A stretch of 64,000 nucleotides of DNA from Candidatus Uhrbacteria bacterium (GCA_026395055.1 JAPLZK010000002.1:56940-120939); one strand, 5' to 3'. Positions 11,986 to 37,993 are shown, counted from the first letter of the stretch. Numbers and translations: made by a program. Notes: generated by a model not told the origin, from the letters alone.

Positions 11986-11995
11986 TTTCTTTTGT

Positions 11996-12062: not shown

Positions 12063-12095
12063 AAGAAAAATAAACCGTGCTAACATTTTTTCACT

Positions 12096-12713
12096 ATGAA
12101 TTACAAAATTACTTCCAAACTCCAAACCGTTGAGGACAACTACCTCGTTCCAACTGTTATAGAAAAAACCAACATGGGTGAGCGTGCGTATGACATTTAT
12201 TCTCGTTTGCTTAAGGATCGCATCATCTTTCTTGGAACGGAGATCGATGACACGGTTGCAAACCTCGTCATTGCCCAGCTTTTGTTTCTTGAAAGCCAAG
12301 ATAAAACAAAAGAAATAAAACTTTACATCAACTCTCCAGGTGGATCCGTTACCTCTGGCCTCGCTATTTATGACGCCATGCAATACGTAAAACCCGATGT
12401 TTCAACCATTTGTGTTGGAATGGCGGCGTCTATGGCAGCGGTACTTCTTGCATCTGGTGCGAAAGGAAAGCGCTTCTGTCTTCCAAACTCAGAAGTCATG
12501 ATCCACCAAGTATTGGGAGGTGTTTCCGGACAAGCAACAGACATTAAAATTCATGCAGAACGTATTTTAAAGATCAAAGATCAGTTGAATACAATTCTTG
12601 CAAAACACACAGGAAAGAAGAAAGCTCAGGTAGAACAAGACACAGAACGTGACTACTTTCTGGATCCAGGAGAAGCGTTGACTTACGGATTAATCGATAA
12701 GGTGATAAAATAA
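12096..12713 (+). CDS. clpP: ATP-dependent Clp protease proteolytic subunit
   Basis: [37 protein letters not shown] and IHQVLGG motifs. Confidence 0.95.
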
Positions 12714-18732: not shown

Positions 18733-19725
18733 ATGATTCAGCTTCATGTCGAGCCGAATACCTCAGCGATGAGTTGGGAGAAATTCCGTGCGACGAAGCC
18801 TGTATTTTCGATCGCACTTGATGGGTACGTGTATGGTGGTCCAAAGTTTCAGAAGCGCGTCGTGCTTCCTGTTTCCGGACCGGTTCGTGAGGGTGAGGCG
18901 CCGCTTCCGCCGATGGTGATCGGACCGTATGCGAACTTCAATCATCACGAAGAAGTTGATCGTCTTGCAACGCGCGCAACGTGTGCGCAAATTTTGATGG
19001 CGATTCGCCAAGGATTCTTTGATACGTTTCGAAACGGTTATAAAGACACAATTCATGTTTACGTGAATGATTGCGATCAAGATGTGTGCATGGCTGTCTT
19101 CTTGCTTCGACACGGAGCGATCTCAGGCACCGTTGTGAATCCCATTTTGAATCGGCTTGTCTTCATGGAGGATATGCTTGATACAACGGCGGGCGCATAT
19201 CCGTTCCCAATGGACATGGAGATTCTCCAAGAACTCGCATGGACATTCAAGCCCTACACAGACATTCGTTTGAGTGGCGGATTGAGTCGACGCAATGCAA
19301 ACGAGTTTGAATCGGTCATCGAACTTGTTGAAAAGCGAATTGAGAAAACGATTAATGGACGCGGTGAACGTGAGGAATTGCAAACCGATTACGACGTCAT
19401 TGGCGGCGGCTCTGGTTGGACAATGGTCGAAGAGAAAGGGGCGCAAGCACGTACGGCCATGTTCGGAAAAGGCATTCGTGCATTCGTTTCTGTGCGTGAG
19501 CGTGCAAACGGAAATTACGATTACTCGATCGGGCGCATGTCCACATTCGTTCCATTCGATATTCCTGGCATCCTTGCTGTGTTGAATGAAGCAGAGGGGT
19601 GTGGGGAAGATTGTTGGGGTGGTGCAGATACCATTGGCGGAAGTCCACGCATTGCAGGTAGTCGACTGACACCAAAAGAAGTAGAAAACATTATCAATTT
19701 TTATCTCACTCAGACTCGCCATTAG
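18733..19725 (+). CDS. Hypothetical protein (330 aa)
   Basis: Long ORF with NFNHHEE and NDCDQD acidic/His clusters, possibly a metal-dependent hydrolase. Not assignable. Confidence 0.5.
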   Translation: MIQLHVEPNTSAMSWEKFRATKPVFSIALDGYVYGGPKFQKRVVLPVSGPVREGEAPLPPMVIGPYANFNHHEEVDRLATRATCAQILMAIRQGFFDTFRNGYKDTIHVYVNDCDQDVCMAVFLLRHGAISGTVVNPILNRLVFMEDMLDTTAGAYPFPMDMEILQELAWTFKPYTDIRLSGGLSRRNANEFESVIELVEKRIEKTINGRGEREELQTDYDVIGGGSGWTMVEEKGAQARTAMFGKGIRAFVSVRERANGNYDYSIGRMSTFVPFDIPGILAVLNEAEGCGEDCWGGADTIGGSPRIAGSRLTPKEVENIINFYLTQTRH

Positions 19726-19771
19726 TGCGGGTCTTTTTTCTTTTTCGATTTAGTGCTTTACTACACGTACT

Positions 19772-20380
19772 ATGTTCACTGGAATCATCAAAGGAAAATT
19801 TCCCGTTGTTTCAATCACAGACCGTGAAGGGTTGCGGTCGTTTGTCGTCCAGTTTTCGCCAGAGTATGTCGAAGGCTTGTCGACGGGGGCATCTGTCGCG
19901 ATTGATGGTGTCTGTTTTACTGCGACGAAGATTGAAGCCGATCATGTTTCCTTCGACGCCATGGAAGAAACACTTCGCAAAACAACCATTGGTACATTAA
20001 AAGAAGGCGACAATGTGAACATCGAACGTTCGGCGCGCATGGGAGATGAGATTGGTGGACATGTGATGTCCGGACACGTTTCGGCCATGGCGGAAATTGT
20101 TGCGGTCAATGAATCGGAAAATAATAAAGCCGTGACATTTAAAGTAGATCCGCCGTGGATGAAATATATTTTCTCCAAAGGATTTATTTCTCTCGATGGC
20201 GCTTCCCTCACCGTCGTTGACGCAGATAAATCAAATGGAACATTTCAGGTGTGGTTTATTCCAGAAACGCTCAAGCTCACAAAGTTTGGAGAGAAGGGGA
20301 TTGGAGATTGCGTGAATCTTGAAATTGATCCGCAGTCGCAAGTGATTGTGGAGACCATTGAAACTATTTTGAAAAAATAA
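19772..20380 (+). CDS. ribE: Riboflavin synthase alpha chain
   Basis: MFTGII start with duplicated GASVAIDGVCFT / ISLDGASLTV lumazine-binding repeats. Confidence 0.85.
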   Translation: MFTGIIKGKFPVVSITDREGLRSFVVQFSPEYVEGLSTGASVAIDGVCFTATKIEADHVSFDAMEETLRKTTIGTLKEGDNVNIERSARMGDEIGGHVMSGHVSAMAEIVAVNESENNKAVTFKVDPPWMKYIFSKGFISLDGASLTVVDADKSNGTFQVWFIPETLKLTKFGEKGIGDCVNLEIDPQSQVIVETIETILKK

Positions 20381-20389
20381 TTTTCATCT

Positions 20390-20791
20390 ATGCCAAAAAA
20401 CATTGCCCTCGTCCTTGGATCATTTCACAAAAAAGAAGCAGACGATATGTTGGTCGTTGCACATGCGGCAGCCCTCGAGAATGATTTGCATGTGAAAGAA
20501 ATTGTGTGGGTTCCAGGTTCTATGGAAGCACCACTCGCGTTGAAACGTTTGTTACTTCGTGAGGATATTGATGGCGCGGTAGCTCTTGGAATCATCGAAC
20601 GCGGAGAAACAAAACATGGACTTGTGATGGGGGAAGTTGTGTATGACGCGATCATTCGTTTGCAACTTGAGTTCATGAAACCAATTGGATTTGGAATTCT
20701 TGGACCAGAAATTTTGCCAGAACAAATCGAGAAACGTGTGAAGCCTTATGCGCGCGCTGCGGTAGAGGCACTCGCAAAGATGTTGGTGTAA
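20390..20791 (+). CDS. ribH: 6,7-dimethyl-8-ribityllumazine synthase
   Basis: VPGSMEAPLALKRL ... DGAVALGIIERGETKHG. Size and position next to ribE fit. Confidence 0.75.
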   Translation: MPKNIALVLGSFHKKEADDMLVVAHAAALENDLHVKEIVWVPGSMEAPLALKRLLLREDIDGAVALGIIERGETKHGLVMGEVVYDAIIRLQLEFMKPIGFGILGPEILPEQIEKRVKPYARAAVEALAKMLV

Positions 20792-20897: not shown

Positions 20898-21959
20898 ATG
20901 CACGCAGGCATGACGGTCAATGGATTGACAATCGGTGTTCATCGACCACGGAAAGATCCACGTCGCGGACGTGTACTTGCCGCGAGAGCACCACAAGGTG
21001 TGCATAACATTGCGGACTACAAAGATATGCCGCAAGGTTGGCCGCGTGCGCAAGGTCCAAACGAGTTGTCGTGTTTTGTGGGGGTCACAGATGAACATGA
21101 GATGTGGTTTGATGTGCGTCCGCTGAATCAGCATTCGCATTACGCTGCTGTGGTCGTGATCGTTCAGCGCGTGAATGCGCTGACCGCTCGCACAGCGGAT
21201 CACGTCTATCTCGAGAAATACGTAGACACGTGTCCGAAGCATGAGACTCTATTCGAGGCAGAACGCTTTTGCCCGGAATGCAAGTTCAAGTGGCCGGCAC
21301 AAAACTACATCACCAATGCGGGCGGTGCAGATTCGGAGAGGCAGTTCTGGCTTGATGGTTGGCGTAGCCAAGACGGTGAGATTCGCCAGTTCGTCTTTGC
21401 GGACGTGGAAAAGGGTCTTGGCGTTGCACAGCAGTTGATTGGCGAAGAGCGCACGGCGGACATTCGCTTCGCGATATTCCTTTCGAAGGAACCGAAGCCT
21501 GTTCCGCCGCGCTTGCAAGCTGCACGTCGTGGCGGGGGAGATATTGTCGATTGTTATTTGGGTGACAATACGAAGGGTGGCGGCTTTTTGGGTCACGCTC
21601 TGAATAGTCCCGTGTTCGGCGCAAAGGTTGATTCAAGCTCGCAAACGCGTTCCTTGAACATGATGGCGACGCTTGGTGCTTCCAGTTTGGGTGATGAGGA
21701 CGCGTCGTTCTTGCAAGGAAACGATCCAAGGACGATCGGTGCTCCGGTGAAGCAGGAGGTTTCCTTTGGTCGCGCGGTGGACCAGAAGATTCATCCGGAT
21801 CCGCATGACATTGGCTTCTGGCAGGACGAACCCGCTGCGGTCATCATGCTCACGCCAGCACCTGCGGCTTGGGTTGAGACCGTGACGCGCAATGGCGCGA
21901 CGGTTGATCGCACGCTTGGCGGTATGGGGCCGCTCGCGGGATTGAAGGGCGTTGGCTAA
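20898..21959 (+). CDS. Hypothetical protein with CPKH...CPEC zinc-ribbon (353 aa)
   Basis: Long GC-rich ORF. No family recognised. Start uncertain. Confidence 0.5.
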   Translation: MHAGMTVNGLTIGVHRPRKDPRRGRVLAARAPQGVHNIADYKDMPQGWPRAQGPNELSCFVGVTDEHEMWFDVRPLNQHSHYAAVVVIVQRVNALTARTADHVYLEKYVDTCPKHETLFEAERFCPECKFKWPAQNYITNAGGADSERQFWLDGWRSQDGEIRQFVFADVEKGLGVAQQLIGEERTADIRFAIFLSKEPKPVPPRLQAARRGGGDIVDCYLGDNTKGGGFLGHALNSPVFGAKVDSSSQTRSLNMMATLGASSLGDEDASFLQGNDPRTIGAPVKQEVSFGRAVDQKIHPDPHDIGFWQDEPAAVIMLTPAPAAWVETVTRNGATVDRTLGGMGPLAGLKGVG

Positions 21960-21971
21960 GACGGGACTCTT

Positions 21972-21998
21972 GAAAGCTGAAAGGCTTTCTTTTTTTTG
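21972..21998 (+). terminator. Intrinsic terminator
   Basis: gaaagc-tgaaag-gctttc hairpin followed by T9. Confidence 0.7.
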
Positions 21999-22047
21999 GA
22001 GGGGCAAGGGATTAGTAGCTAACTGGCTTACTAACCCCTAACCCCTC

Positions 22048-22085
22048 TTGACGTTTCTTTAGTATGTGTATAACCTACACTTAGT
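22048..22085 (+). promoter_or_regulatory. Promoter P1 with 28-bp box TTTAGTATGTGTATAACCTACACTTAGT
   Basis: TTGAC at 22048. The box differs at a single base (C for T) from the one at 23671-23698. Confidence 0.65.
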
Positions 22086-22270
22086 GGCACATGTCGCCCG
22101 GAAAACGGACGGGAAACGCTTGACATAATCCGGATCCGCGACTAGGGTGCTGTATTGTTCTTTCTTGCTGGCGAATGGCTTTGAGAAGATTCTGTGAATC
22201 TTTTGAAAGCCGTTCGTCATCAGGGTGTTCCTGAAGTTGCCGTGCGGTGGTTCTCACAAGGAGTATTTCC

Positions 22271-23614
22271 ATGCCCGCCAAGCCCAAGGCACCCGTTGCC
22301 GCTACTGCCGAATCCGGCGCCACTGTTCCCCCCGCGAGTCCGAAGTGGACGGCGCTCGTCGAAAAGTTTGCGGCCTCGACCGGTCTCGGTATCGAAGTCG
22401 TTGGCCCTCGTTTCAAGACGCTCACTGGCACGGACGACGACGCTGGTGTGGAGTTGCTCGAGAACGCGGCAGACACGCCCGACCAGGAATTGAAGACGTT
22501 GTTCGCGGCTGATGGTGTCGCTTCGGCGCGCCTGAATCGCGCGATTCGCGAGATGCGTTTGGTTGCAGCTCCTGTCGTCCCCGTCGCTCCGGCGCCTGGT
22601 CCGTCCGCGGCCGTTCCGAACGTTGGTTCGACTCCGATTCTGCTGACGCAGGCTCCGGGGGACGATGATCTTCTCCGCGCGTTGCGGATTGGCGGTCGTC
22701 CCGAATTCGAAGCGGCCAACTTGGCTGCGGTCATTCGCGCGGCTGTCGCGGCGAAGAACGGATTGTATGGGTTGCCGAAGCGCTTGCAGGAGGCGATTCA
22801 CGAGACGGCTCGTCGTACCAAGAAGCCTGCCCCCGCTGTGCTCGTCGAAATTCGTCGCGAGCTTGCTCGGCGCAGTGATCAGGCCGCGTTGTTCGCCGAT
22901 CTGATGCCCGGTCAGGATGGTGCGAACTACGTCACGGCCGAAGACAAGGTCCAGACCATCAAGGATCTCGACAAGGTTTGGCCGGCGTTCATGCAATTTC
23001 AGCAGCAGCTTCGTGGTTTCCGCGATGAAGCGGTGAACGTTGCCATGACGGCAGGGATGATGGGCATGCAAGGCATGAACATGGGTCTCGCTGCCGCGGG
23101 TCTCACCCCGGAAATGCTGGTTGGTACCAGTTTGGATGCCCAACCGTACGTAGACGCGAGTGAAGGGATCATCAATGCCCTGAACGAGGTCTTCGCGGAC
23201 ATGGGTTTGTACGCTTCGCGCGTGCTTGCCGTGGAAGCGCATCGGTTGACGCAAATCGTGCAGAAGGACGAATTGATCGCTGCCGTTGGCGCGACCAATC
23301 GCGAAGAGATGTTGCTGACGCTGAAGATCGGCATGACGTCCGACGTCATCCGTGCGCAGCAGAACCTGGTGACGTGGGTCGTGAACGTGATCGATCTGCC
23401 GAACAAGGATGCTATGAGTTTGCGCGGCGTGCTTCTCACGTTGTTCCAGCTCGGTGAGCAGATTCCGTGGGAAAAGCTCAGCAATGGCGCGGTCAGCTTG
23501 CCGCGGCAGTCGATGGGCAATGGCGCGAGCCGCCCCTCAATGGACGGCCGTCCGCTCCCCGGCCAAAAGCAGCCCGGCAACACGGCGTTCAGCAGCAACA
23601 ACGGCCGCGACTAG
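22271..23614 (+). CDS. Hypothetical protein, Ala/Pro-rich N-terminus (447 aa)
   Basis: aaggag RBS 7 nt before the ATG (MPAKPKAPVAA...). Met/Gly-rich patch MTAGMMGMQGMNMGL. No family recognised. Confidence 0.55.
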   Translation: MPAKPKAPVAATAESGATVPPASPKWTALVEKFAASTGLGIEVVGPRFKTLTGTDDDAGVELLENAADTPDQELKTLFAADGVASARLNRAIREMRLVAAPVVPVAPAPGPSAAVPNVGSTPILLTQAPGDDDLLRALRIGGRPEFEAANLAAVIRAAVAAKNGLYGLPKRLQEAIHETARRTKKPAPAVLVEIRRELARRSDQAALFADLMPGQDGANYVTAEDKVQTIKDLDKVWPAFMQFQQQLRGFRDEAVNVAMTAGMMGMQGMNMGLAAAGLTPEMLVGTSLDAQPYVDASEGIINALNEVFADMGLYASRVLAVEAHRLTQIVQKDELIAAVGATNREEMLLTLKIGMTSDVIRAQQNLVTWVVNVIDLPNKDAMSLRGVLLTLFQLGEQIPWEKLSNGAVSLPRQSMGNGASRPSMDGRPLPGQKQPGNTAFSSNNGRD

Positions 23615-23627: not shown

Positions 23628-23655
23628 AGAACGTCCCAAAAAGACGTTCTTTTTT
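23628..23655 (+). terminator. Intrinsic terminator
   Basis: agaacgtc-ccaaaaa-gacgttct hairpin followed by T5. Confidence 0.8.
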
Positions 23656-23660: not shown

Positions 23661-23698
23661 TTGACAAGAGTTTAGTATGTGTATAATCTACACTTAGT
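23661..23698 (+). promoter_or_regulatory. Promoter P2 (TTGACA ... TATAAT) carrying the same 28-bp box as P1
   Basis: TTGACAagagTTTAGTATGTGTATAATCTACACTTAGT. Confidence 0.7.
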
Positions 23699-23893
23699 AA
23701 CGCATTTCATTACCTTCCCCTTGCGAAGGGGGAGCATGAGGGGGTCTGTGGCTAAAAGCCTTGACATTCCGCTGTTATTTCCTTAAGGTTCGCCCTTGTT
23801 TTTCTTCCGGAATCGAACAATGTGTCCGCTTCGGGAAGGGAAACAAACACAAGGTTTGTCTCGCGCGTCCTTTTCACAACAGAGGGATCATCC

Positions 23894-25537
23894 ATGCACA
23901 CTTTGCCAGACGTTCGTACGCTTCCGCTTCCGTCCAAATTCCTTGTCGCGCTTCAGAAACTGATTCTTCGCACGCTTGAGATCTCTGGGTCAAAGATGGG
24001 GAATCAACTCGTCGAAGCGATTTTTGGAAAAACCATCACGTTTGGTCAACTCCAGATTCCTTCTATGCAAGATTGTGTTGAAGCGATTCGGGGCGAAGGT
24101 ATGACGCGTCCAAACATTCGCATTCGTGAACTCGTAGATCTCTTTGGAGCGATCAACCCAACAACGCCTGTGTGCGATGAGTGTGGTGAGTTTGCCATCA
24201 ATCAGATCGGTGGAAAGTTCATGGAACTTCAGCCCGACGAACTCTGTCCGTTTTGTTTGCAGGGCCACGTCAAGATCGAACCGATGATTCTGCGTACGGT
24301 GAACTGGGCAACTGGTGAACTCGTTGTGCCGAACATTGATTACGATTCACACTCGCGCATTGGTCTCGGCATTCCGCTGACTGATGAAGCGATTGTGAAG
24401 TGGGCGGATGGAATCAATATGGATTTGGATGCCGCACTCGTTGCGGCAAAGATTTCCATTCACGGGTTCCTTGCGTACCTGTATCTGCGTCAGCATGCAT
24501 TCGCACAGCTCGAAGACGTTCCGAAATTTCTGTTGAGTCCACGTGGATTCGATACGAAGTATTCGGAAGAGACACTCGATCGTCTCATACGTGAGGCATC
24601 GCAATTTCTGGATGTGCGTGAGATCACAAATCTTCCGCACAAGAAATTTCTTCCTGATGGTCGTCGTCGCGATGAGTTTACCTCGATCACAATCGGTGGT
24701 CGCGCGTATCTCATCGATGGCAAGATTGGTGAAGGAGATAAGTGCGATGTGTACGCTGGTCGATGGGATCACGAGCCGACGGAGCGTGTCGTCGTAAAGA
24801 TTGCACGCGTTGGCGTGAGTGATGATCGACTGCGTGCGGAGCGCACAAATCTTGAGTTGCTCGCGAAGAGTGATGCGCAAGGCGTGGAATTTTTTCGCCA
24901 ACTGCTTCCGGAAATCATTTCGTTCGGCAGCGTACAAGATCCAAACGGGCAATCACGCTCGTGTGTGGTCTATCGCGATCGAAACGGATTTGATTGGACC
25001 CTCGCTGACGTGATGCGTGCGTACCCACAAGGAGTGGAGCCACAGACGATGGTCTGGATGTTCAATCGAACACTCATGTTGCTTGCGTGGATGCATGAAC
25101 ATGACATTGTGCACGGTGCTCTCACACCTGGGCACATGCTCATTCATCCGAAGTATCACGGACTCATGTTTCTTGACCTCGCGTATGCGGGTCGAATCGG
25201 ACAGCCGCTTCCGGATGTCGAACCTTCACACGTGCTCTATCGTCCAAGTGCATCGCTTACCAACAATGTCTTTCACCCAATGATGGACATCTGTATGGCA
25301 GCGCGATGCATGATTGTGGTCATGGGAGGAAACCTCGAGCAAAAAACGATTCCGACAACTGTGCCGGATCCGCTCGCGGCGCTCTTGTCCAACCTCGCAT
25401 TTCCGGATGATAGCCATTTGTGGGGTTCGCGTTTTGCCAAGTTGGCCGATCAAGTCAAAGCAAGCTTTGGCGCGATTGCGGAAACGGTTTACGGCCCGAG
25501 GAAGTATCACGCATTTGAAATGCCACCCGTGGCATAG
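23894..25537 (+). CDS. Protein-kinase-fold protein, probable pseudokinase, with N-terminal CxxC...CxxC zinc-ribbon (547 aa)
   Basis: Gly-loop IGEGDKCDVY, VVVKIA Lys, ERTNLELL. Catalytic loop IVHGALTPGHMLI has Ala in place of the catalytic Asp. DFG position reads FLDLAYAG. RBS agaggga. Confidence 0.6.
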   Translation: MHTLPDVRTLPLPSKFLVALQKLILRTLEISGSKMGNQLVEAIFGKTITFGQLQIPSMQDCVEAIRGEGMTRPNIRIRELVDLFGAINPTTPVCDECGEFAINQIGGKFMELQPDELCPFCLQGHVKIEPMILRTVNWATGELVVPNIDYDSHSRIGLGIPLTDEAIVKWADGINMDLDAALVAAKISIHGFLAYLYLRQHAFAQLEDVPKFLLSPRGFDTKYSEETLDRLIREASQFLDVREITNLPHKKFLPDGRRRDEFTSITIGGRAYLIDGKIGEGDKCDVYAGRWDHEPTERVVVKIARVGVSDDRLRAERTNLELLAKSDAQGVEFFRQLLPEIISFGSVQDPNGQSRSCVVYRDRNGFDWTLADVMRAYPQGVEPQTMVWMFNRTLMLLAWMHEHDIVHGALTPGHMLIHPKYHGLMFLDLAYAGRIGQPLPDVEPSHVLYRPSASLTNNVFHPMMDICMAARCMIVVMGGNLEQKTIPTTVPDPLAALLSNLAFPDDSHLWGSRFAKLADQVKASFGAIAETVYGPRKYHAFEMPPVA

Positions 25538-25542
25538 CTCTT

Positions 25543-25626
25543 CGTAGAGGAGGGGATTTACTTCTCCTCTACGAAATCTTTTTCCTGACTTGAAACGTGT
25601 ACACAAAATTTGTGCACGCATTTCAG
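25543..25626 (+). promoter_or_regulatory. Island junction unit, W variant
   Basis: cgtagaggag...ctcctctacg hairpin, TTTTTCCTGA, long imperfect hairpin gaaacgtgtacacaaa/tttgtgcacgcatttc, TTTCAGA. Confidence 0.6.
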
Positions 25627-25688
25627 ATCATGAATCTGAATCGAACAAAGGGTTCGAGGAACGTTCTTCACAACACAGGAGTCAGCAC

Positions 25689-26636
25689 ATGGGTGGCGGA
25701 TTTTACGATTACCGTGCACACGAAGCAACAACGGTTGCGCGTGCAGCCAAACCCATTCAAGTGGTGTTTTCACAAACGGCGTGTCATCCGCTCATGGATC
25801 CGAAAGGATTGCGTGTGCGTGAATCACGTGACAGTTTGGAACATCCAAACTCGCGTGCGATTCTCTTTGGAGTCGATGTGACGAAGTCGATGGGGCCAAT
25901 CCCAGAAGGGTTGGCAAAGCGAACATTGCCGCAATTCATGCGCGCCGTGCTCCGCGTCATTCCGCATCCGCAGATTTGTTTTGTTGGCATCGGTGACGCA
26001 CTCGATGGGGATCGCGCTCCGCTTCAAGTGGGTGAGTTCGAAAGTTCGCACGCGCTTATTGATGCGAGTCTTACGCGTCTGTACATCGAAGGTGGTGGTG
26101 GATCCATCGGAAGTGAGTCTTATGAGAACATGTTTTATCTGGCTGCACGTCATACGTCGATTGACTGTTGGGAGAAGCGTCGCGAAAAGGGGTATCTCTT
26201 TTTGACTGGCGATGAAACTCCGTATCCAAACGTGATTGCCTCCACGATCAATCGATTGATTGGTCCAGGAACGCTGACCGCAAACATTCCCATCGAAGCA
26301 ATCATTGCAGAAGCAAGTGTGAAATATCATCCGTTCTTTTTTATTCCAGACCAAGGTCGCTCACTCACGATTGAACGTTCGTGGCGCAACAAGCTTGGGG
26401 ATGCAGTGATCGTTCTTCAAAATCCGGAAGATACGTCCGTTGCGGCCGCGATCTTGATTGGCCTCTGCGAAGGCGTTTATCAACATCTCGACGACGTGCG
26501 TCAGGCACTTGCAACGGAGTTTGATCGAAAGGGCGATGCGTTGTATCGCGTTGTTTCATCTGTTGAAGCATACGCCGCATCCATTGGACTTGGTGGCGCG
26601 CGCCGTCCGGTTTTGTCGCAAGGTGTGCGGTGGTGA
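25689..26636 (+). CDS. vWA-domain protein 1 (315 aa)
   Basis: MIDAS-like FGVDVTKSMG, later IGDA and LFLTGDETP. Paralog of the next gene. Confidence 0.65.
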   Translation: MGGGFYDYRAHEATTVARAAKPIQVVFSQTACHPLMDPKGLRVRESRDSLEHPNSRAILFGVDVTKSMGPIPEGLAKRTLPQFMRAVLRVIPHPQICFVGIGDALDGDRAPLQVGEFESSHALIDASLTRLYIEGGGGSIGSESYENMFYLAARHTSIDCWEKRREKGYLFLTGDETPYPNVIASTINRLIGPGTLTANIPIEAIIAEASVKYHPFFFIPDQGRSLTIERSWRNKLGDAVIVLQNPEDTSVAAAILIGLCEGVYQHLDDVRQALATEFDRKGDALYRVVSSVEAYAASIGLGGARRPVLSQGVRW

Positions 26637-26649
26637 TTCCAATTTCTTT

Positions 26650-26731
26650 GTAGGGGAGGGTGACTATTCTCCCCTACACCATTTTTTCCTGAACTGAAAT
26701 ATCTATTCGATCATCGAATGTATATTCCAGG
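26650..26731 (+). promoter_or_regulatory. Island junction unit, W variant
   Basis: gtaggggag...ctcccctac hairpin, TTTTTTCCTGAA, long imperfect hairpin ending TTCCAGG. Confidence 0.6.
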
Positions 26732-26819
26732 TCATGAATCTGGTTCTGTTATCGAGGGTTCGATTCCAGAAGTGTCTCATATTCCGATTTCGATCGGAAG
26801 TACACAAGGTAGGTGTCTC

Positions 26820-27794
26820 ATGGGCAGTGGTGGTTGGGATCATAGCGCTTCAACGGCGCGTTCACAGACGCGTTCGGCGCGTTCTGTTCAAGAAACGGTG
26901 TTGCAGGATTTTACGCAGACGCGTGAAAGCCGAATCCATCCGGGGATGCATCCGAATGGGCTCGTGTTTCGCGAGTCGCGTGACAGTGTGGAACATCCGA
27001 AGTCTCGTGCAATCATCGGTTCGCTCGACATCACGCAGTCGATGCAGGGGCTTCCGCCGCTGCTCGCGCGTGAGACGTTGCCGCAACTGATGGCAGGCGT
27101 TTTGCCGATTTTGCCGGATGCACAACTGTGCTTCATGGCGTTCGGTGATGCGGATGATGGACACAACTATCAAGGACCGTGGCAGGTTGGTCAGTTCGAG
27201 AGCTCGGATGAGCTTGCGGACGCGTGGCTGACGCGCATCTGGTTGCAAGGGAGTGCTGGTTCGTCTCCGTGCGAATCCGCGGACCTCATCTTGTACACGG
27301 CGGCTCGGCTCACGCGCATCGATTGTCACGAGAAGCGTGGCGAGAAAGGTTATCTGTTCATTCTGACCGATGACACGTGCCGCGACTACGTTTGTGCGGC
27401 AACGGTGAACAAGTGGCTTGGTCGTCAGGAACTCGATGAGAACGTCTCGATCGAGGCGATCATTCAGGAAGCTGCTGAAAAGTACCACATCTTCGTGTTG
27501 ATCCCGGATCAGGCGCGTGCGGTGCAGATGCGTGGCGGCGAGCGCGTCATCGATCACTATCGTCGTCGTATCGGCAACGGGGCGATTGCGCTTGGTGGGT
27601 ACCAGGACACGTCCATCGTTGCGGCCATGCTCATCGGCCTCACCGAAGGCGCGTACAACATGTCGAACGTCGACCATGAGTTGCGCACGCGGTACGGCAA
27701 GTCGGGTGACGAGCTGAATCGGTTGCTCATGATCCTGCGTCCGTACGCGGAATCCCTGCCGAAGACGCCGCTCATCGTGGATCTGCCCGTCTGA
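26820..27794 (+). CDS. vWA-domain protein 2 (324 aa)
   Basis: GSLDITQSMQG MIDAS-like motif, FGDADD, LFILTDDT. Shares the HPxMxPxGLxxRESRDSxEHPxSRAI N-terminal block with vWA-1. Confidence 0.65.
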   Translation: MGSGGWDHSASTARSQTRSARSVQETVLQDFTQTRESRIHPGMHPNGLVFRESRDSVEHPKSRAIIGSLDITQSMQGLPPLLARETLPQLMAGVLPILPDAQLCFMAFGDADDGHNYQGPWQVGQFESSDELADAWLTRIWLQGSAGSSPCESADLILYTAARLTRIDCHEKRGEKGYLFILTDDTCRDYVCAATVNKWLGRQELDENVSIEAIIQEAAEKYHIFVLIPDQARAVQMRGGERVIDHYRRRIGNGAIALGGYQDTSIVAAMLIGLTEGAYNMSNVDHELRTRYGKSGDELNRLLMILRPYAESLPKTPLIVDLPV

Positions 27795-27806
27795 GTTCTT
27801 TCTTCT

Positions 27807-27870
27807 GAGGTTCAACGGGAACCTCCTTTTTTACAAGTGATGATCACAGGGATGATTGCTTCTAGAAAAG
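27807..27870 (+). promoter_or_regulatory. Island junction unit
   Basis: GAGGTTC-aacg-GGAACCTC, CTTTTTTACA, tgatgatca/tgattgc stem, TAGAAAAG, then GGAGGAG RBS. Confidence 0.7.
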
Positions 27871-27891
27871 TTCTAGCTTCGGAGGAGTCCT

Positions 27892-29277
27892 ATGACTCGA
27901 CATGCTCATCTTGTCGTTGATCTTTCAAACGGGGATGCAGGAAAAGGAACGATCGTGGATGCGCTCGTGCGGAAGTATCGTGCGCATACCGTGATTCGAT
28001 TCAATGGCGGTGCGCAAGCGGCGCATCGTGTTGTGACCGGTGACGGTCGCGAACATATTTTTTCCCAATTCGGTTCAGGAACATTTGTTCCGGGTGTGCG
28101 CACTGTGCTTTCGAAGTACGTGCTCGTTCAGCCGTGGGCGCTTGTTCCGGAAGCGGAGCATCTCGAAGAGCTCGGCATTACGGATGCCTTTGATCGATTG
28201 TTTATTCATGAAGACGCACTCATCATCACACCATTTCATCGAGCGGCAAATCGCTTGCGTGAACGTGCGCGTGCAAAATGGGATGGTCGACATGGGAGTT
28301 GCGGAATCGGCGTTGGCGAGACGGCACATGATGCGCTCACGCTCAAGGAATCGCTCGTGGTTCGCGTGCGTGACTTGCGTGATCTGGGTGCGTTGAAAGA
28401 AAAACTGCAACGCGTGCAAAAACAAAAAGCGTTTCATGTTGATGCGATGATGTTTCAACTGATCGACGATCCAGAAGCCTCCGTAGACATTATCGAACTC
28501 GAAGATCCGGAAGCGGCAACATCTTGGATCAAGCAGCTCGAAGCGGTGCTACCGAAACTGAATATCATTGATGACACATGGTTTGCATCTCTCTTGAACG
28601 AACCAGGTCACATCGTGTTTGAAGGTGCACAAGGTGTGCTCATTGATGAGTCACGCGGATTTCATCCGTACACCACGTGGTCGAATTGTACATTTCAAAA
28701 CGCGCTCGACTTGCTCGCAAACTACGATGGAGAGATTCATAAGATCGGAGTTGTCCGAGCGTATGCGACGCGCCATGGTCCTGGTCCGTTTGTGACGGAA
28801 GATGTTCATCTCACAGAACGTCTGCCGGACGCATGTAATAAAATGGATCCATGGCAGCGTGGATTTCGCGTCGGCCACTTCGATTGCACCTCTACTCGAT
28901 ATGCGATCTCGGCTTGTGACGGCATCGACTCGCTTGCGATTACATGTCTCGACCGCTTGCGCGATGAGCCTGCGTGGAAGATCTGCACATATTATGAACT
29001 TGCTCCAGAAGATGAAGAAAGCACGTTGTTCTATGTTGTGAAGACGTTTCGAGGTTTTCGCCTCTGGATGGACCCTGGACCGTTCCAAGACCTTATATAC
29101 CAAGAGCGACTCACGCACGCACTCGAGCGCGCGAAGCCCGTGCTTCACATTACAACCACGTCAGGAACGTTCGATGAACGCGTCGAACACCATGTCCGCG
29201 AGATTACACAAGAACTCAACGTTCCTGTCTCGATCCTTTCGTTCGGTCCAACAGCAGAAGATAAGAAATTTCTCTAG
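27892..29277 (+). CDS. Adenylosuccinate synthetase family enzyme (PurA/PurZ-like, 461 aa)
   Basis: P-loop GDAGKGTIVD, RFNGGAQAAH, GSCGIGVGE, FEGAQGVLIDESRGFHPYTTWS and ATRHGPGPFVTE, in the canonical PurA order. Confidence 0.8.
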   Translation: MTRHAHLVVDLSNGDAGKGTIVDALVRKYRAHTVIRFNGGAQAAHRVVTGDGREHIFSQFGSGTFVPGVRTVLSKYVLVQPWALVPEAEHLEELGITDAFDRLFIHEDALIITPFHRAANRLRERARAKWDGRHGSCGIGVGETAHDALTLKESLVVRVRDLRDLGALKEKLQRVQKQKAFHVDAMMFQLIDDPEASVDIIELEDPEAATSWIKQLEAVLPKLNIIDDTWFASLLNEPGHIVFEGAQGVLIDESRGFHPYTTWSNCTFQNALDLLANYDGEIHKIGVVRAYATRHGPGPFVTEDVHLTERLPDACNKMDPWQRGFRVGHFDCTSTRYAISACDGIDSLAITCLDRLRDEPAWKICTYYELAPEDEESTLFYVVKTFRGFRLWMDPGPFQDLIYQERLTHALERAKPVLHITTTSGTFDERVEHHVREITQELNVPVSILSFGPTAEDKKFL

Positions 29278-29301
29278 ATGCGAATGATTCGCATCTTTTT
29301 T
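29277..29301 (+). terminator. Intrinsic terminator ending the kinase-vWA-vWA-PurA operon
   Basis: gatgcgaa-tga-ttcgcatc hairpin followed by T6. Confidence 0.85.
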
Positions 29302-29359
29302 GTTGGCCAAGAACCCCCTCCTTATCAAGGAGGGGGCAGGGGGTGGTCGGGTATCAACC

Positions 29360-29451: not shown

Positions 29452-30441
29452 ATGTCAAACAAGATCGGTTCGCAACTCGTTCAGGCCATTTTGGCCATGC
29501 AGAAAGATCCGTCCAAGCTCGCGGTTGAGCTCAAGGTTCATGTCTTTCCGTGTCCGCATAGTGACAATGCGCATCATATGCACTTCAAGGTGACGTCTCC
29601 GTTCGTTGAGGACCAAACGTTGGCTCAGCAGATCGAAGCGAACCTGATGATGGCGGCGATGACGCAAGAGTTCATGCCTGTGAAGGGCAATTACGATTTC
29701 ACCCAGAGTCTCATCAGTGGCACCAAGTGTACCAATGAAGAGGTGTCCGATGCCGACACGGTTCAGTTCCTGCAGAATGCGGGGATCGTGAAGGCGTTGT
29801 TTGATCTGACGGTCGCCCTGCGAGATGCTTTTGCCGAGTGGCCGAGCGAACTCAGCACGGAGCATGTGCTTTCGGCTGGGTATTCGACCCAGACGCGCAA
29901 GAAGCTTTATCATGGCACGGACACCGATCCGATCAAGGTCGAGGTCGTGAGCATGCGCAAGATTGCACTCGATCAGACAAAGCGTGCACTGATGTCTCTG
30001 TTCGCTCCCAATTTCGCGAAGAGCGAACGTGTCGAGCAGAACAAAGTGATCACGCTCATTGCGTTCAACGACGTGAATCCCTGTTCGCCCGTCGTGCGCC
30101 AAGCGTACGCGGCATACGCGCAGGAGATGCTCGACAACAAGCTCGAGCCGAAGATCGCTCCGAAGATCGTGGAGCGCGTGCAGTTGGCACTCGACACGCT
30201 TGCGACGCGCCTTGCGAAGCAGCAAGCCACGAAGCTGAATGAGACCACCACGAATCCGACGCAGACGGCGGTCGGTACGGAGGATGGCATCGGCACGGAA
30301 GTCGGTGACGGCGCGACGAAGACGACGAACGTCCCGCAGGCTCTGTCTGGTGGGGTTGGTCCTGGTTCGTCCGAAGTTTCCTTCAATCCTTCGTCCGCTG
30401 GCCACGACAGCAATGGTCAGTCGACTGGCGCTACGGCGTAA
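29452..30441 (+). CDS. Hypothetical protein with low-complexity Thr/Gly tail (329 aa)
   Basis: Long ORF with its own promoter and terminator. No family recognised. Confidence 0.55.
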   Translation: MSNKIGSQLVQAILAMQKDPSKLAVELKVHVFPCPHSDNAHHMHFKVTSPFVEDQTLAQQIEANLMMAAMTQEFMPVKGNYDFTQSLISGTKCTNEEVSDADTVQFLQNAGIVKALFDLTVALRDAFAEWPSELSTEHVLSAGYSTQTRKKLYHGTDTDPIKVEVVSMRKIALDQTKRALMSLFAPNFAKSERVEQNKVITLIAFNDVNPCSPVVRQAYAAYAQEMLDNKLEPKIAPKIVERVQLALDTLATRLAKQQATKLNETTTNPTQTAVGTEDGIGTEVGDGATKTTNVPQALSGGVGPGSSEVSFNPSSAGHDSNGQSTGATA

Positions 30442-33517: not shown

Positions 33518-34534
33518 TCAGACGGGAAGTTCTCGAATGAATGGGGTGTTACCGCGGCCAATGTTTTCGCTTCCGAAGTCGAAGATTTGTACGGGGTGTC
33601 CGCCCTGACCAAGGGATTCAAACGGTATTTTGTTTGAAGTGCTCGTTGCAAGGTAACGTCCATTTCCATAGAGGCACATGTGTTCAACCGGGTTGTTGAA
33701 TCCACTAATGTCACAGAGGATGTTACCGTCCGGGATTTGTACGACCAGAACGTAGTTTGGATTTTTTGTGGAAAGGAGAATTGTCTCATCATCAACGACG
33801 ACGAGATGTGAATATTCAACACGATGACTGTAACAAATTATGCGAGAGTTTCGTGTTGGTGCAATGAGCGTTATTTTATTCTTTTCAAGAAAAAGGAGTG
33901 TCCCGTTCGGTGTCCACCCACATTGAAAAATTCTTTCCGCATGTGTTTCCAGTTTTCCCGAACCCCATTTGGGATGAATGTCGTTCGAAGAATAGCCGAA
34001 CAATTGGTAGTCTCTCCACGATATTGCAATGAACGTTGGTGAATTTGGATTTGCAACGATTCCACTGAATGGCGTGTTGTTGCGCCTGCTTTCATAAACG
34101 ATTTTGTGCGTAGTGCCTGTCCATTCTAGAACACGTACGAGCCCTGTATCTGTCACAAACGCCACAAGATCATTTTGTAAAACAGTGAGGTGGGATTCAC
34201 CGTTTTTTGCAGATCGAAAGAGGTTGCTCGTTATCTCAATGTCAATATCGTTGCGTGTGAGGAACCAGATATTTCCATCCTTGGATGTGAGATATGCTCG
34301 CGTTCCATCCTTGGACCAGCGGAGGGAGGTGAAGTGATTTTCGACTGGATCAAATTTACCTAATGTCTTTCCAGTCTTCGGGTTGAAAAGACAAAGCGTG
34401 CTTTCGTTTTTGTTTTCTCCTCTTCCGATGCAAACAAACATTTGTTCGTCGGGGGAAATGGAAATGTGCGTGATGGGTGGATAATTTCCCTTTAAGGTGA
34501 AAAGGCGCAACGGTTCTCGAATAAGATCGGACAT
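33518..34534 (-). CDS. WD40-like beta-propeller paralog 1 (338 aa) with conserved C-terminal tail
   Basis: Repeated blade-like segments (ITHISISPDEQMFVC, LRWSKDGTRAY...). Tail IFDFGSENIGRGNTPFIRELPV. Confidence 0.65.
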   Translation of the reverse strand: MSDLIREPLRLFTLKGNYPPITHISISPDEQMFVCIGRGENKNESTLCLFNPKTGKTLGKFDPVENHFTSLRWSKDGTRAYLTSKDGNIWFLTRNDIDIEITSNLFRSAKNGESHLTVLQNDLVAFVTDTGLVRVLEWTGTTHKIVYESRRNNTPFSGIVANPNSPTFIAISWRDYQLFGYSSNDIHPKWGSGKLETHAERIFQCGWTPNGTLLFLEKNKITLIAPTRNSRIICYSHRVEYSHLVVVDDETILLSTKNPNYVLVVQIPDGNILCDISGFNNPVEHMCLYGNGRYLATSTSNKIPFESLGQGGHPVQIFDFGSENIGRGNTPFIRELPV

Positions 34535-34559
34535 GGGATCCCTCCGATGGAAACTTGAA

Positions 34560-34622
34560 CTTTCTCATGAACATTCATCGCGTTGATGACCGTTCATGTA
34601 AAAGGGCGATCACGTGATCGCC
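34560..34622 (-). promoter_or_regulatory. Island junction unit, V type
   Basis: Minus-sense GGCGATCACGTGATCGCC, CTTTTACA, TGAACGGTCATC-aacgc-GATGAATGTTCA, TGAGAAAG, then GGAGGG RBS. Confidence 0.8.
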
Positions 34623-34629
34623 GAGGATG

Positions 34630-35646
34630 TTAGACCGGGAGGTCTGTAATAAAGGGGGTGTTGTTGCGGCCCAGGTTCGCGCTCCCGAAGTCAAAAATCT
34701 GAGCAGAATGATCTCCGGCACTACGAGAGCAAAATGGAATGTGGTTTGCCGTGTTTGTCATGAGATATCGCCCAAGGTCAAACAAACACATACTTGTTAC
34801 CGGCTTTACGAATCCGCCCATGTCAAACAAGATTTTTCCATCCGGGATCTGTACGGCCAGGATGTAGTTTGGATTTTTCGTTGAGACAAGAATGGTTTCG
34901 TTATTCACGACAAGCAAATCTTCGAGCTCAATTCCGTGATTGATAACGATCCGTTTTTCGTCTCGACGATCAAGAACAATTCGATCTGGAAGAAGAAAAA
35001 TCCATGTTCTGTCTTGGGTCCACGCACCTTTTTGAATTCCATTTTCAAGAGGAGGATCTTGTCTCATGCAGATCCAGTTATTCCCCGTATCTCCAAACAG
35101 CTGAATATATGCACCACATGTCGAGAGAAACATGGATGGATTTGTGGAAGGAATAATTCCTGAGAATGAACAGTGCTGTTGTTCTTGGTGGACGACGACG
35201 TGTTTCTGTCCATCCCATGTCATTACACAGATGAGGCCAGATTGAGTGATGAATGCAATCAAATCATCCACTAAGATTGTCAGGTAGGTTGGACCGTTGA
35301 TATGAATGGGGTTTGTTCCGCGTGCATGCTCGTAGAGCAATTTCATTTGTTTAAATTTGTTTTCTTGCCATTCAAGAAAGAAAATTTTTCCGAGCGGTGT
35401 CGTTGCATACAAACGTTCGCCATTTTTTGACCATTGTAGTGTCTTAAATGAGAAACTTTGTATGTACGGTTTGCACAGTTCTTTTTCAGTTTGTGGGTTG
35501 AAAAAGTGAATGGCAGTGAAGTCGTGCTCTTGTTTTCCCATGCAAGCAAGTGTTTGCTCGTCTGGTGAGAGAGTAAGATGTGTAATCGGGTCACGATTAT
35601 TACTCAGCAACAAACGATGAGCAGGCTCTCGAATAAGATCGGACAT
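34630..35646 (-). CDS. WD40-like beta-propeller paralog 2 (338 aa)
   Basis: Same N-terminus (MSDLIREP) as paralog 1. Tail IFDFGSANLGRNNTPFITDLPV. Confidence 0.65.
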   Translation of the reverse strand: MSDLIREPAHRLLLSNNRDPITHLTLSPDEQTLACMGKQEHDFTAIHFFNPQTEKELCKPYIQSFSFKTLQWSKNGERLYATTPLGKIFFLEWQENKFKQMKLLYEHARGTNPIHINGPTYLTILVDDLIAFITQSGLICVMTWDGQKHVVVHQEQQHCSFSGIIPSTNPSMFLSTCGAYIQLFGDTGNNWICMRQDPPLENGIQKGAWTQDRTWIFLLPDRIVLDRRDEKRIVINHGIELEDLLVVNNETILVSTKNPNYILAVQIPDGKILFDMGGFVKPVTSMCLFDLGRYLMTNTANHIPFCSRSAGDHSAQIFDFGSANLGRNNTPFITDLPV

Positions 35647-35671
35647 GGGATCCCTCCGATGGAAACTTGAA

Positions 35672-35734
35672 CTTTCTCATGAACATTCATCGCGTTGATA
35701 ATCGTTCGTGTAAAAGGGCGATCACGTGATCGCC
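35672..35734 (-). promoter_or_regulatory. Island junction unit, V type
   Basis: Nearly identical to 34560-34622, including the leader and RBS. Confidence 0.8.
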
Positions 35735-35741
35735 GAGGATG

Positions 35742-36725
35742 TTAGACCGGGAGGTCTGGAATGAGCGCGGTTGGTTTGCGGCCAAGGTTTGGGCCGCCGA
35801 AGTCAAGGACGCGCGGCCACTTTTCATAGTCTTGTCGTACGGCGCGTGCTCGCTCTTTGCTTGCGGCAATGAGGTAGCGATTTTCTTCGCCATAGACACA
35901 GACGGAGGAAATGCCGCCTGCGAATCCGCCGATCTGTTTTTGCACAACCATCTCAGGAAACTGAGCGATCACGAGTCCTGTTGTTGTTCCGACCGCGAAT
36001 GTTTTGTCATCTACTTTTGTTAGACAAAGAACGGGCTGTTCAAGTTTCAGGAATGGAGCGTCTTTTACAGAACGCACAGATCCGTCTTCGCATCCGGTGA
36101 GAAGTGTTTCTCCCATCCAGAGAAGACTGTTCACTTGTGCTTCTTCTTTTCGTTCACGTGCATCGCGAACAAGTCGTCGTTGCAGAGCTTGTTCGTAGTC
36201 TGTGGCGTCGTAGACCATGATTCCGTTTTTCACAGAGCTTGCAGCAAGATGTGTGCCGTCTTCATTGAATACAAGCATGTTGCAATCACACTTTTGATCT
36301 CCAAGATCGACATTTGCTTCGTTGCGTACATGTATGACGTTGTTGTACATGCTTGCAATGAGATTTTTTGCGGAAACAGCCGCGCTTGGAATAGCCGTGT
36401 CTTGTGGAGAAAAGACTCGAGCGCTTTTCCATGCTTGTGTCGGGTCGTCCGGTCGTGGCCAGGATAGGGTTGATGCTCCATCACTTGTGATGAGACGATC
36501 ACCTTTTTTGTTCCAGGCAACGGTATGAACATCACTTTGATGACCATCCAGAATTTTGACGACTTCACCCGTTTCCGGATTCCAAATATGGACTCGTGGA
36601 TCTCCACGATTACCCGCGCCGGCAATCAGCTTTTGATCAGGCGACAGCGCAAGTTGCCACACGTCGTGGTTGTGTCCACCAAGGACGCGCGCAATTTTCG
36701 GATCTGGGATCTCTTGGTCTGCCAT
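35742..36725 (-). CDS. WD40 repeat beta-propeller paralog 3 (327 aa)
   Basis: Canonical WD signatures (GGHNHDVWQLALSPDQKLIAGAG...VHIWN, LDGHQSDVHTVAWN). Tail VLDFGGPNLGRKPTALIPDLPV. Confidence 0.75.
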   Translation of the reverse strand: MADQEIPDPKIARVLGGHNHDVWQLALSPDQKLIAGAGNRGDPRVHIWNPETGEVVKILDGHQSDVHTVAWNKKGDRLITSDGASTLSWPRPDDPTQAWKSARVFSPQDTAIPSAAVSAKNLIASMYNNVIHVRNEANVDLGDQKCDCNMLVFNEDGTHLAASSVKNGIMVYDATDYEQALQRRLVRDARERKEEAQVNSLLWMGETLLTGCEDGSVRSVKDAPFLKLEQPVLCLTKVDDKTFAVGTTTGLVIAQFPEMVVQKQIGGFAGGISSVCVYGEENRYLIAASKERARAVRQDYEKWPRVLDFGGPNLGRKPTALIPDLPV

Positions 36726-36750
36726 GAAGCACCTCTATTGAAAGAAAGAA

Positions 36751-36812
36751 ACTTTCTCACGAACGTTCATCACTCGATGACGATTCGTGTAAAAGGGCGA
36801 TCACGTGATCGC
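36751..36812 (-). promoter_or_regulatory. Island junction unit, V type
   Basis: GGCGATCACGTGATCGCC, CTTTTACA, CGAATCGTCATC-gagt-GATGAACGTTCG, TGAGAAAG. Confidence 0.8.
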
Positions 36813-36820
36813 CAAGCGTG

Positions 36821-37900: not shown

Positions 37901-37930
37901 GCGTAAGACCTCTTGGGTGAAAGGAACGGA

Positions 37931-37993
37931 CTTTCTCATGAACGTTCATCGCGCTGATGATCGTTCGTGTAAAAGGGCGATCACGTGATCGCC
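37931..37993 (-). promoter_or_regulatory. Island junction unit, V type
   Basis: GGCGATCACGTGATCGCC, CTTTTACA, CGAACGATCATC-agcgc-GATGAACGTTCA, TGAGAAAG. Confidence 0.8.

Follow-up and report, generated by a model that had tools for sequence, protein, structure and literature searches.

A kinase-fold, vWA and PurA-family gene module conserved in bacteria and phages, with a putatively rebuilt amine pocket in its PurA-family enzyme

The subject of this work is a cluster of four genes in a 64,000-nucleotide stretch of DNA (hereafter the window) from a Candidatus Uhrbacteria bacterium (GCA_026395055.1 JAPLZK010000002.1:56940-120939). Coordinates are those of the whole window, in which the four open reading frames (ORFs), named here K, V1, V2 and P, lie on the plus strand between 23.6 and 29.3 kb (Table 1). 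K combines a zinc ribbon with a kinase fold, V1 and V2 are vWA proteins, and P belongs to the adenylosuccinate synthetase (PurA) family. The window also encodes GyrA, FtsH, S1, PilB, SMC and tRNAs, as befits a bacterial chromosome, and the nearest named relatives of its P and K are found in Candidatus Uhrbacteria and Patescibacteria. A preliminary description of the locus, made from the sequence alone, had listed the four genes with their motifs (CDEC/CPFC and IVHGALTPGHMLI in K, RESRDSxEHPxSRAI and DVTKSMG/DITQSMQ in the vWA proteins), and all of these are present, with small corrections to the coordinates. We place the start of K at the ATG at 23894, which has a GAGGG Shine-Dalgarno sequence and agrees with an independent gene call (L001) on public contigs with this sequence, which come from two Logan metagenome assemblies, and not at the GTG at 23822 where the mechanical ORF begins. 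For V1 and V2 the shorter starts (25689, MGGGFYDY; 26820, MGSGGWDH) are preferred over the longer-ORF starts at 25590 and 26718, because each of them has a Shine-Dalgarno sequence and coincides with the N-terminus of the family.

Table 1. Genes, motifs and signals of the cluster and its immediate surroundings, in window coordinates.
Feature	Coordinates	Strand	Description
K	23894..25537	+	547 aa; zinc ribbon and Hanks-type kinase fold without catalytic residues
Zinc ribbon of K	24173..24256	+	residues 94-121; CDEC (residue 94) ... CPFC (residue 118)
Catalytic-loop equivalent of K	25106..25144	+	IVHGALTPGHMLI, residues 405-417; HRD Asp replaced by Ala409, Asn by His414
V1	25689..26636	+	315 aa; vWA fold; MIDAS DVTKSMG 25875-25895; RESRDSxxHP block 25818-25862; N-terminus MGGG
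V2	26820..27794	+	324 aa; more divergent paralogue of V1; PHROG 2971 match 6.5e-27
P	27892..29277	+	461 aa; PurA family, V-linked clade; P-loop GDAGKG 27931-27948; remodelled aspartate loop WQRGFR 28852-28869
Left cluster boundary	23628..23650	+	hairpin and T-run after upstream gene B; 8-bp stem, then TTTTTT
Promoter-like TTGACA-N15-TATAAT	23661..23687	+	'P2' of the preliminary description; read directly in the sequence
Hairpin and T-run, K-V1 spacer	25541..25575	+	15-bp hairpin; unit duplicated upstream of V2
Hairpin and T-run, V1-V2 spacer	26649..26678	+	13-bp hairpin; paralogous to the 25541-25575 unit
Hairpin and T-run, V2-P spacer	27807..27825	+	
Right cluster boundary	29276..29302	+	hairpin AGATGCGAA-TGA-TTCGCATCT (29276-29296), then T6
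Genes A and B	20898..23614	+	A 20898-21959, B 22247-23614; upstream of K; no family; syntenic in contig L086
Gene C	29452-30441		downstream of P; ORF without family match

Judged by comparison of sequences, the window locus is one copy of an undescribed, conserved and horizontally spread module. In a scan covering one genome per species V is encoded in at least 580 species genomes, and in about 70 of the 79 bacterial loci kept for tblastn K is followed on the same strand by V (one or two copies) and then by P, in Myxococcota, Planctomycetota, Verrucomicrobiota, Chloroflexota, Burkholderiales, Acidobacteriota and others. Given enough flank, P adjoins V in 67 of 71 bacterial loci and K does so in 72 of 76, and the reverse approach, starting from homologues of P, finds K-V-P in three loci out of three. 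The same pairing is found in viruses: IMG/VR holds V in at least 404 contigs, many of them 200-437 kb long, with V followed by P in all 68 informative viral contigs and a K-like gene detected in 37 of 76 viral loci. About 200 Bixzunavirus (cluster C) mycobacteriophages carry the order kinase, V, a small ORF and a 'PurA-like' gene. In Rhizobium phage RHph_Y65 and Vibrio phage SRILMA the V-P pair stands without K amid genes of nucleotide and NAD metabolism, and the ORFs upstream of it gave no match to the K profile in hhalign. With about 150 independent loci, bacterial and viral, the association of the three genes is far beyond chance. Since V-P recurs throughout, while many viral loci are without a detectable K, we regard V-P as the invariant core of the module and K as a frequent third member. 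Adjacency of vWA and PurA-family genes, for which the preliminary description had proposed a search, is therefore a property of hundreds of genomes and phages and not of this genome only. In the two K-less phages, homologous proteins with Met/Gly-rich tails are encoded just upstream of V (RHph_Y65 gp016, L084 3777-4568; SRILMA CDS0095, L085 4216-4935), and these proteins, unrelated to the K profile, might substitute for K there.

Nothing else travels regularly with these genes, since all-against-all clustering of the ORFs of the 79 loci found no conserved fourth gene, only K, V and P recurring. Neither did the 127 immediate neighbours, compared with Pfam and PADLOC, contain any recurrent family or any enrichment in defence genes, the only hits of that sort being generic DEAD helicases in four and kinases in two. 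This bears on the idea that the module is an anti-phage defence system, in which K and V would sense infection and P would deplete or poison the purine pool, the phage copies being counter-defence or decoys. A self-contained three-gene module in variable contexts, in many phyla and common to phages and bacteria is what one might expect of such a system; moreover, K gives weak matches to kinase-based defence models (PADLOC PD-T4-6 at 2.6e-5, MADS6 at 0.0036), and one locus lies beside AbiE genes. V and P, however, match no PADLOC model, the neighbours show no defence enrichment, the locus has a stable place beside ribE and ribH in the Patescibacteria related to this one, and the module occurs very often in jumbo-size contigs of lytic phages. 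We therefore think a defence role improbable, although it would be compatible with the chemistry that we propose below for P.

The description of P as a full-length member of the PurA family holds (Pfam Adenylsucc_synt, E = 2.3e-66), and P has the fold and length of E. coli adenylosuccinate synthetase. Even so, it scores far under the curated cut-offs of the PurA equivalogs in NCBIfam (179.1 bits versus 402 for NF002223, 155.7 versus 395.55 for TIGR00184), and also under that of the PurZ model of the same collection (49.8 bits versus 300). The P proteins of 55 bacterial homologues, together with members from Patescibacteria (candidate phyla radiation), phages and viral contigs, were aligned to E. 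coli PurA and tabulated by residue. Besides the GDxGKG form of the P-loop, Asp13, Lys16, His41, Gln224, Thr239 and Asp333 are kept in all or nearly all P, and Ser414 in most. Asn38, on the other hand, has become Gln in all P sampled but one, Thr129 has become Cys (Val or Ile in some viral contigs) in all but one, and Arg143 is lost in all but one, a bacterial sequence that keeps it. Val273 is His in 100% of V-linked P, Lys331 is Cys or His in nearly all, and Ser240 is replaced, the replacement being Trp in every bacterial and Patescibacteria member; Glu14 gives way to Ala, Cys, Ser or Gln in the bacterial members. Lastly, the aspartate loop TTGRRR (Thr300-Thr301-Gly-Arg-Arg-Arg) is turned into [W/Y/F/H]-Q-G-x-[F/V/M/I]-R, with one viral exception. 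The controls, E. coli PurA and a canonical purA from a Myxococcaceae metagenome-assembled genome (locus L021), have the canonical residues (TTGR, Val). As the register of the alignment in the aspartate loop shifts by one residue between HMMER and MAFFT, our claim is limited to a conserved rebuilding of the aspartate site.

A neighbour-joining tree of all V-linked P with PurA and PurZ had saturated distances and did not recover the split (26 of 100 bootstraps), and the status of P as a clade rests on the table of signature residues and on the curated cut-offs. By these two measures P is a separate V-linked clade, neither housekeeping PurA nor PurZ. The Myxococcaceae locus just mentioned carries both the triad P and the canonical purA, about 7 kb apart (11012-12349 and 19420-20643), so that P is there an extra paralogue beside purA.

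What these replacements may mean depends on the roles of the residues in E. coli adenylosuccinate synthetase, which we take, from the structures of Honzatko and Fromm, to be as follows. Asp13, His41 and Gln224 presumably activate O6 of inosine monophosphate (IMP), and Asp333 reads guanine; Thr300, Thr301, Arg303 and Val273 would shape the aspartate site; Asn38, Thr129, Thr239 and Arg143' (from the other subunit) are assumed to bind the 5'-phosphate, with Arg143 completing the dimer site. Our literature search gave no residue-level data on the aspartate site. On these roles, P keeps the residues that phosphorylate O6 and exchanges those for L-aspartate, together with part of those for the 5'-phosphate. 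The chemistry of P is thus probably that of PurA, judging from the kept residues, with GTP-dependent activation of the purine 6-oxo group followed by attack of an amine.

The simplest alternative is that P is an ordinary adenylosuccinate synthetase, boosting or salvaging AMP, from which phages, and Patescibacteria whose purine metabolism is reduced, would benefit, while V and K merely regulate it. The full-length family match, the intact Asp13, His41, Gln224 and GTP residues, the public annotations (which name P adenylosuccinate synthetase) and the position of phage P amid nucleotide and NAD metabolism genes all agree with this. Yet it would leave the distance from the PurA equivalogs and the replacement of Thr300, Thr301, Arg303, Val273 and the dimer-completing Arg143 in nearly every member sampled to be accounted for, as well as the coexistence of P with a canonical purA in one locus and the essentially obligate vWA partner; in addition, the hosts of mycobacteriophages have a purA of their own. 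We consider this alternative unlikely, and P would, on its sequence, serve something other than housekeeping AMP synthesis. The preliminary description had itself allowed that P might turn out to be organismal purA, and neither the scores nor the signature residues are those of such an enzyme. An ordinary purA operon was accordingly rejected as a reading of the locus.

Phage PurZ is the other known enzyme to which P has to be compared, being likewise a phage-carried member of the PurA family with changed specificity and hence a precedent for new chemistry in this fold. Phage records (e.g., NC_054722.1, NC_070967.1 and PP083314.1) name P '2-aminooxy adenylosuccinate synthetase', a PurZ-type name inherited from phrog_1211, and the replacement of Glu14 in the bacterial P could be read in the same sense, so that P would make 2-aminoadenine (Z) nucleotides for DNA. 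The low score with the PurZ model and the P-loop speak against it, since P has GDAGKG, with Asp13 kept, where phiVC8 PurZ has GSTGKG, with Ser; this residue (Ser14 of phiVC8 PurZ, at the position of PurA Asp13) was used as a PurZ marker in a preprint. Also against it are the guanine-reading Asp333, which is kept, the commonness of P in bacterial chromosomes, and the absence of DatZ, MazZ and DpoZ from the regions around P in phages Turret, RHph_Y65 and SRILMA as well as of any conserved fourth gene in the 79 loci; the partner of P is instead a vWA protein. A PurZ-type function is, in our judgement, hardly credible. The kept Asp13 and the low PurZ-model score make the PurZ-type label of phage P doubtful, and public naming of P as either 'adenylosuccinate synthetase' or 'PurZ-type' is probably wrong, to judge from the sequences.

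V1 and V2 had been described as paralogous vWA proteins, and this is borne out by their 46% identity, their shared block RESRDSxEHPxSRAI (RESRDSLEHPNSRAI in V1, RESRDSVEHPKSRAI in V2) and their MIDAS-like motifs. Neither matches Pfam (E <= 0.1), NCBIfam or PADLOC, and both are members of PHROG 2971, where no function is assigned; a profile of V found no relative with a solved structure among the sequences of the Protein Data Bank. For want of Pfam and PADLOC matches the fold was assigned by structure prediction: an AlphaFold2 model of V1, built with 81 homologues, has a confidence (pLDDT) of 94 and a Rossmann-like vWA fold, in which Asp63 and Ser67 of the MIDAS D-x-T-x-S motif (DVTGSMG) and the downstream Asp175 (in TGDE) are invariant in the 81 sequences. 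By model and sequence, then, V is a cytosolic vWA protein with a predicted MIDAS metal site. The divergence of V2 includes the change of a GGGG loop to GSAG and of TGDE to TDDT. The family comprises 2147 clusters at 50% identity, and among those listed almost all are single-domain proteins of about 300-340 residues. A vWA-MoxR pair was considered for this locus and rejected, there being no adjacent AAA+ gene.

The N-terminus of V is highly constant: 234 of 249 full-length representatives (94%) begin with Met-Gly, with the consensus M-G-x-[G/S/T]-x-[Y/W/F]-[S/D], and phage V only 30-35% identical to V1 keep MG-x-[G/A] (MGxG in Turret and RHph_Y65, MGGA in SRILMA). It is tempting to speculate that the amine attacking the activated purine is the alpha-amino group of the N-terminal glycine of V after removal of the methionine, in which case V would be the substrate of P, becoming N6-linked to a purine nucleotide, and K would read or control the adduct. 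The first position of the V profile is residue 1 in most of the full-length matches listed, residues 1-7 are coil in the model of V1 at a confidence below that of the rest, and the pocket of P, without the arginines that hold a dicarboxylate and with an aromatic-Gln pair and His273, would suit an uncharged peptide end; the essentially obligate V-P linkage fits as well. But this is pure conjecture on our part, and a conserved N-terminus would be equally explained by folding, by capping of the MIDAS, or by an interface with K or P. Position 4 is Ala in one phage homologue, no V-P fusions occur among the matches listed, and no PurA-family enzyme is known to us to use a protein as substrate. Such protein-nucleotide conjugation is, for these reasons, quite improbable.

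K was at first suspected of being a pseudokinase or an atypical kinase, and the family agrees with this. Searches with the single sequence gave marginal kinase matches only, whereas a profile of 48 members matched CK2 alpha at 1e-13, aligning HRDVKPHN...DWG of the latter to HGAVLPEH...GWS. The beta3 Lys-alphaC Glu pair of the Hanks-type fold is present in K, the Lys being kept in 67 and the Glu in 61 of 70 homologues. The residues of phosphotransfer fare differently: at the HRD Asp position 42 of the 70 have Ala and 16 have Asp, His stands in place of the catalytic-loop Asn in 67, and Gly in place of the DFG Asp in 66. Of these three the K of the window retains only the Asp at the DFG position (D428), and its Ala409 and His414 do not vary among the 25 long-form homologues, which all come from Uhrbacteria or Patescibacteria, the long form being specific to Patescibacteria. 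Given that most of the family has lost these three residues, K is, by sequence, a pseudokinase or, if an enzyme at all, one of a very atypical sort. Nucleotide-binding pseudokinases that act as scaffolds (e.g., STRAD-alpha) and kinase-fold enzymes of other chemistry (SelO, SidJ) exist; K differs from all of these in having its own set of invariant residues, W388, R392, H401, H407 and H422. The four cysteines of the ribbon are invariant in the 25 long forms, and the short-form family has a near-invariant four-Cys ribbon immediately before the kinase domain.

Kinase plus vWA recalls the TerY-P triad, which reportedly (Anantharaman, Iyer and Aravind are said to have described it in 2012) consists of the vWA protein TerY, a Ser/Thr kinase and a PP2C phosphatase. 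Both are compact, mobile three-gene modules with a cytosolic vWA gene beside a kinase-fold gene, and one could imagine K as an active Ser/Thr kinase that phosphorylates V, for instance at the serines of the conserved RESRDS block, and a vWA domain relaying the signal; the 16 homologues with Asp at the HRD position might be adduced in its favour. As the preliminary description had already remarked, though, the locus is unlike that triad. PP2C has no match among seven window proteins searched with Pfam nor in the Pfam summary of the neighbours, TerD is absent from the window proteins and from the same summary, and the third gene is of the PurA family. In addition, the three catalytic residues are jointly lost in most K, Ala409 is invariant in the lineage of the window, and K is undetectable in about half of the phage modules. 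V also lies outside the Pfam vWA models, the comparison here being with those models and not with TerY itself. Phospho-signalling of this type is therefore very improbable. More distant zinc-ribbon/vWA pairs, namely the Sec23/24 trunk, archaeal ArnA-ArnB and TFIIH p44/p34 (Ssl1/Tfb4), have no sequence relationship to K-V, so that docking of K on V would be our inference, and they lack both a ribbon-fused kinase-fold domain and a nucleotide ligase. All in all, the module falls outside the PurA equivalogs, PurZ, TerY-P and every system of PADLOC-DB v2, and what it shares with known proteins lies at the level of folds: vWA with MIDAS, kinase fold and PurA family.

The reading that we tentatively favour, while holding it short of probable, is that P joins a purine nucleotide to some amine that is not aspartate, with V as its partner and K as a nucleotide-binding pseudokinase. 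P would phosphorylate the 6-oxo group of a purine nucleotide using GTP, as PurA does, and would then couple the purine so activated to some amine different from L-aspartate, giving an N6-substituted purine nucleotide not necessarily resolvable by the usual PurB step. V would be the obligate partner of P, acting through its MIDAS site as a regulatory or substrate-presenting subunit. K, having kept the ATP-anchoring Lys-Glu pair and lost the phosphotransfer residues, could be a nucleotide-binding sensor or scaffold, whose zinc ribbon may dock on the vWA domain. By analogy this would be a known kind of change, a PurA-family enzyme of altered specificity like PurZ, here within a vWA/kinase-fold module. 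The biological role, remodelling or signalling of nucleotide pools when a phage infects or under stress, is a guess, given that the neighbours show no defence enrichment and that the Patescibacteria locus sits stably beside riboflavin genes.

Several points weigh against the non-aspartate ligase just outlined. Inferring a substrate from altered pocket residues can fail, and Arg305 and Arg306, with most of the phosphate contacts, remain in P, so that P may yet use aspartate; the disagreement between HMMER and MAFFT over the loop has the same bearing. The parts of the module, moreover, seem separable: about half of the viral loci have no detectable K, and in the complete bacterial loci L007, L009, L011 and L026 there is no P within 10 kb of V, with K in L007, L009 and L011, meaning either that the parts have come apart there or that P is encoded elsewhere in the genome. 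Co-transcription of the four genes of the window is likewise no better than putative, each of them having its own terminator-like hairpin.

A bolder proposal, which we regard as doubtful, is that the V-P pair constitutes an unrecognised nucleotide-modification pathway of jumbo phages, mycobacteriophages and many bacterial phyla, putting a non-aspartate amine on purine C6, with the N-terminal glycine of V as that amine in its most radical version. A dedicated pseudokinase would then read the product, whether a new N6-substituted nucleotide or a protein-nucleotide adduct. What is new here, as far as comparison of sequences goes, is the spread of the module through phages and bacteria, its V-P core, the clade-defining rebuilt amine pocket and the family-wide degeneracy of the kinase. 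Searches of open-access and bioRxiv full text found no description of the K-V-P association, nor did PADLOC contain one, an absence that is not proof. PurZ has taught us that a change of specificity within the PurA fold can rewrite the DNA alphabet of a phage, and here is a second clade of the family whose amine pocket is rebuilt in a conserved way. It is present in at least 404 viral contigs, in some 200 sequenced genomes of Bixzunavirus and in at least 580 species of bacteria, nearly always with an unstudied vWA protein as its neighbour, and no published function was found for it. Should the product be a new nucleotide or a protein-nucleotide adduct, this would be new biochemistry in phage-host conflict or nucleotide signalling, and phrog_2971, like the mycobacteriophage genes at present labelled hypothetical, would acquire a function. 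Phages of Mycobacterium smegmatis make the module amenable to experiment. Misannotation of P matters, besides, for the metabolic reconstruction of Patescibacteria and for the calling of auxiliary metabolic genes in phages.

Returning to the window, the signals around the four genes are only partly those of a simple operon. The promoter proposed at the left end is there as a TTGACA at 23661 and a TATAAT at 23682, but the 15-nt spacer between them is outside the 16-18 nt of our consensus scan, which for this reason did not list the pair. It is followed by a leader of K of about 200 nt, in which there are a hairpin rich in G (23714-23735) and, at 23761, another TTGACA; searches of leaders and spacers with Rfam (gathering threshold or E <= 1) found no riboswitch or other RNA family. 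The hairpin and T6 terminator proposed at the right end was found as well. As for the operon itself, the genes are adjacent and on the same strand, but K, V1, V2 and P each have a hairpin and T-run of their own at the 3' side, which leaves a single uninterrupted transcript plausible but unproven. Such sites follow nearly every gene in this region, with 31 observed between 19.5 and 32.5 kb against 15.2 +/- 3.0 expected.

The junction units by which the genes had been said to be joined are real, and the K-V1 and V1-V2 spacers are paralogous to each other, from which we derive V2 by tandem duplication of a spacer together with a V gene. The second V copy is missing from a related contig (L086), the one relative examined across this position, and the duplication in the window is, on this comparison, lineage-specific. 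Two types of spacer recur, one consisting of a hairpin, TTTTTCCTGAnTTGAAA and CAGrTCATGAATCTG, upstream of V1 and V2, and the other of a G-rich hairpin and CCTTGAC, upstream of K and C. These intergenic units look like terminator-plus-promoter units, and may perhaps be a trait of this genome.

The related contig, 248 kb long and from Patescibacteria, is syntenic with the window, in the order ribE, ribH, A, B, K, V, P ... rubrerythrin, TrmB; V is present there in one copy, and the gaps that separate K, V and P are short. In view of this synteny we rejected the idea of a mobile island in this genome, and in this lineage the module is, for the same reason, a stable chromosomal locus. A and B are 61% and 29% identical to their counterparts there, A being more conserved than K or V, and neither is part of the module in other phyla; in one Uhrbacteria assembly P is followed by C and a thioredoxin-reductase-like gene. 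Searches of A, B and C against Pfam, NCBIfam, PHROGs and PADLOC gave no match except a chance-level one of B to PADLOC Csx1 (E 0.01), and no relatedness was found between them and the N-terminal 260 residues of K. The three genes may be lineage-specific accessories of the module.

Farther away, the minus strand at 33518-37939 has four tandem paralogous ORFs of 338, 338, 327 and 372 residues, with 21-43% mutual identity, two of which were searched against NCBIfam without a match. An ORF at 59624-60634 resembles the reverse transcriptase/maturase of group II introns (TIGR04416, 5.5e-41, under its cut-off), with weaker matches to the defence-type reverse transcriptases Drt3a and Drt2. Finally, a 754-residue SMC-like ORF on the minus strand at 8595-10859 matches the 1181-position SMC model with 598 bits in two stretches, corresponding to its N- and C-terminal parts, which points to either a coiled coil of much reduced length or a gene that has been split.

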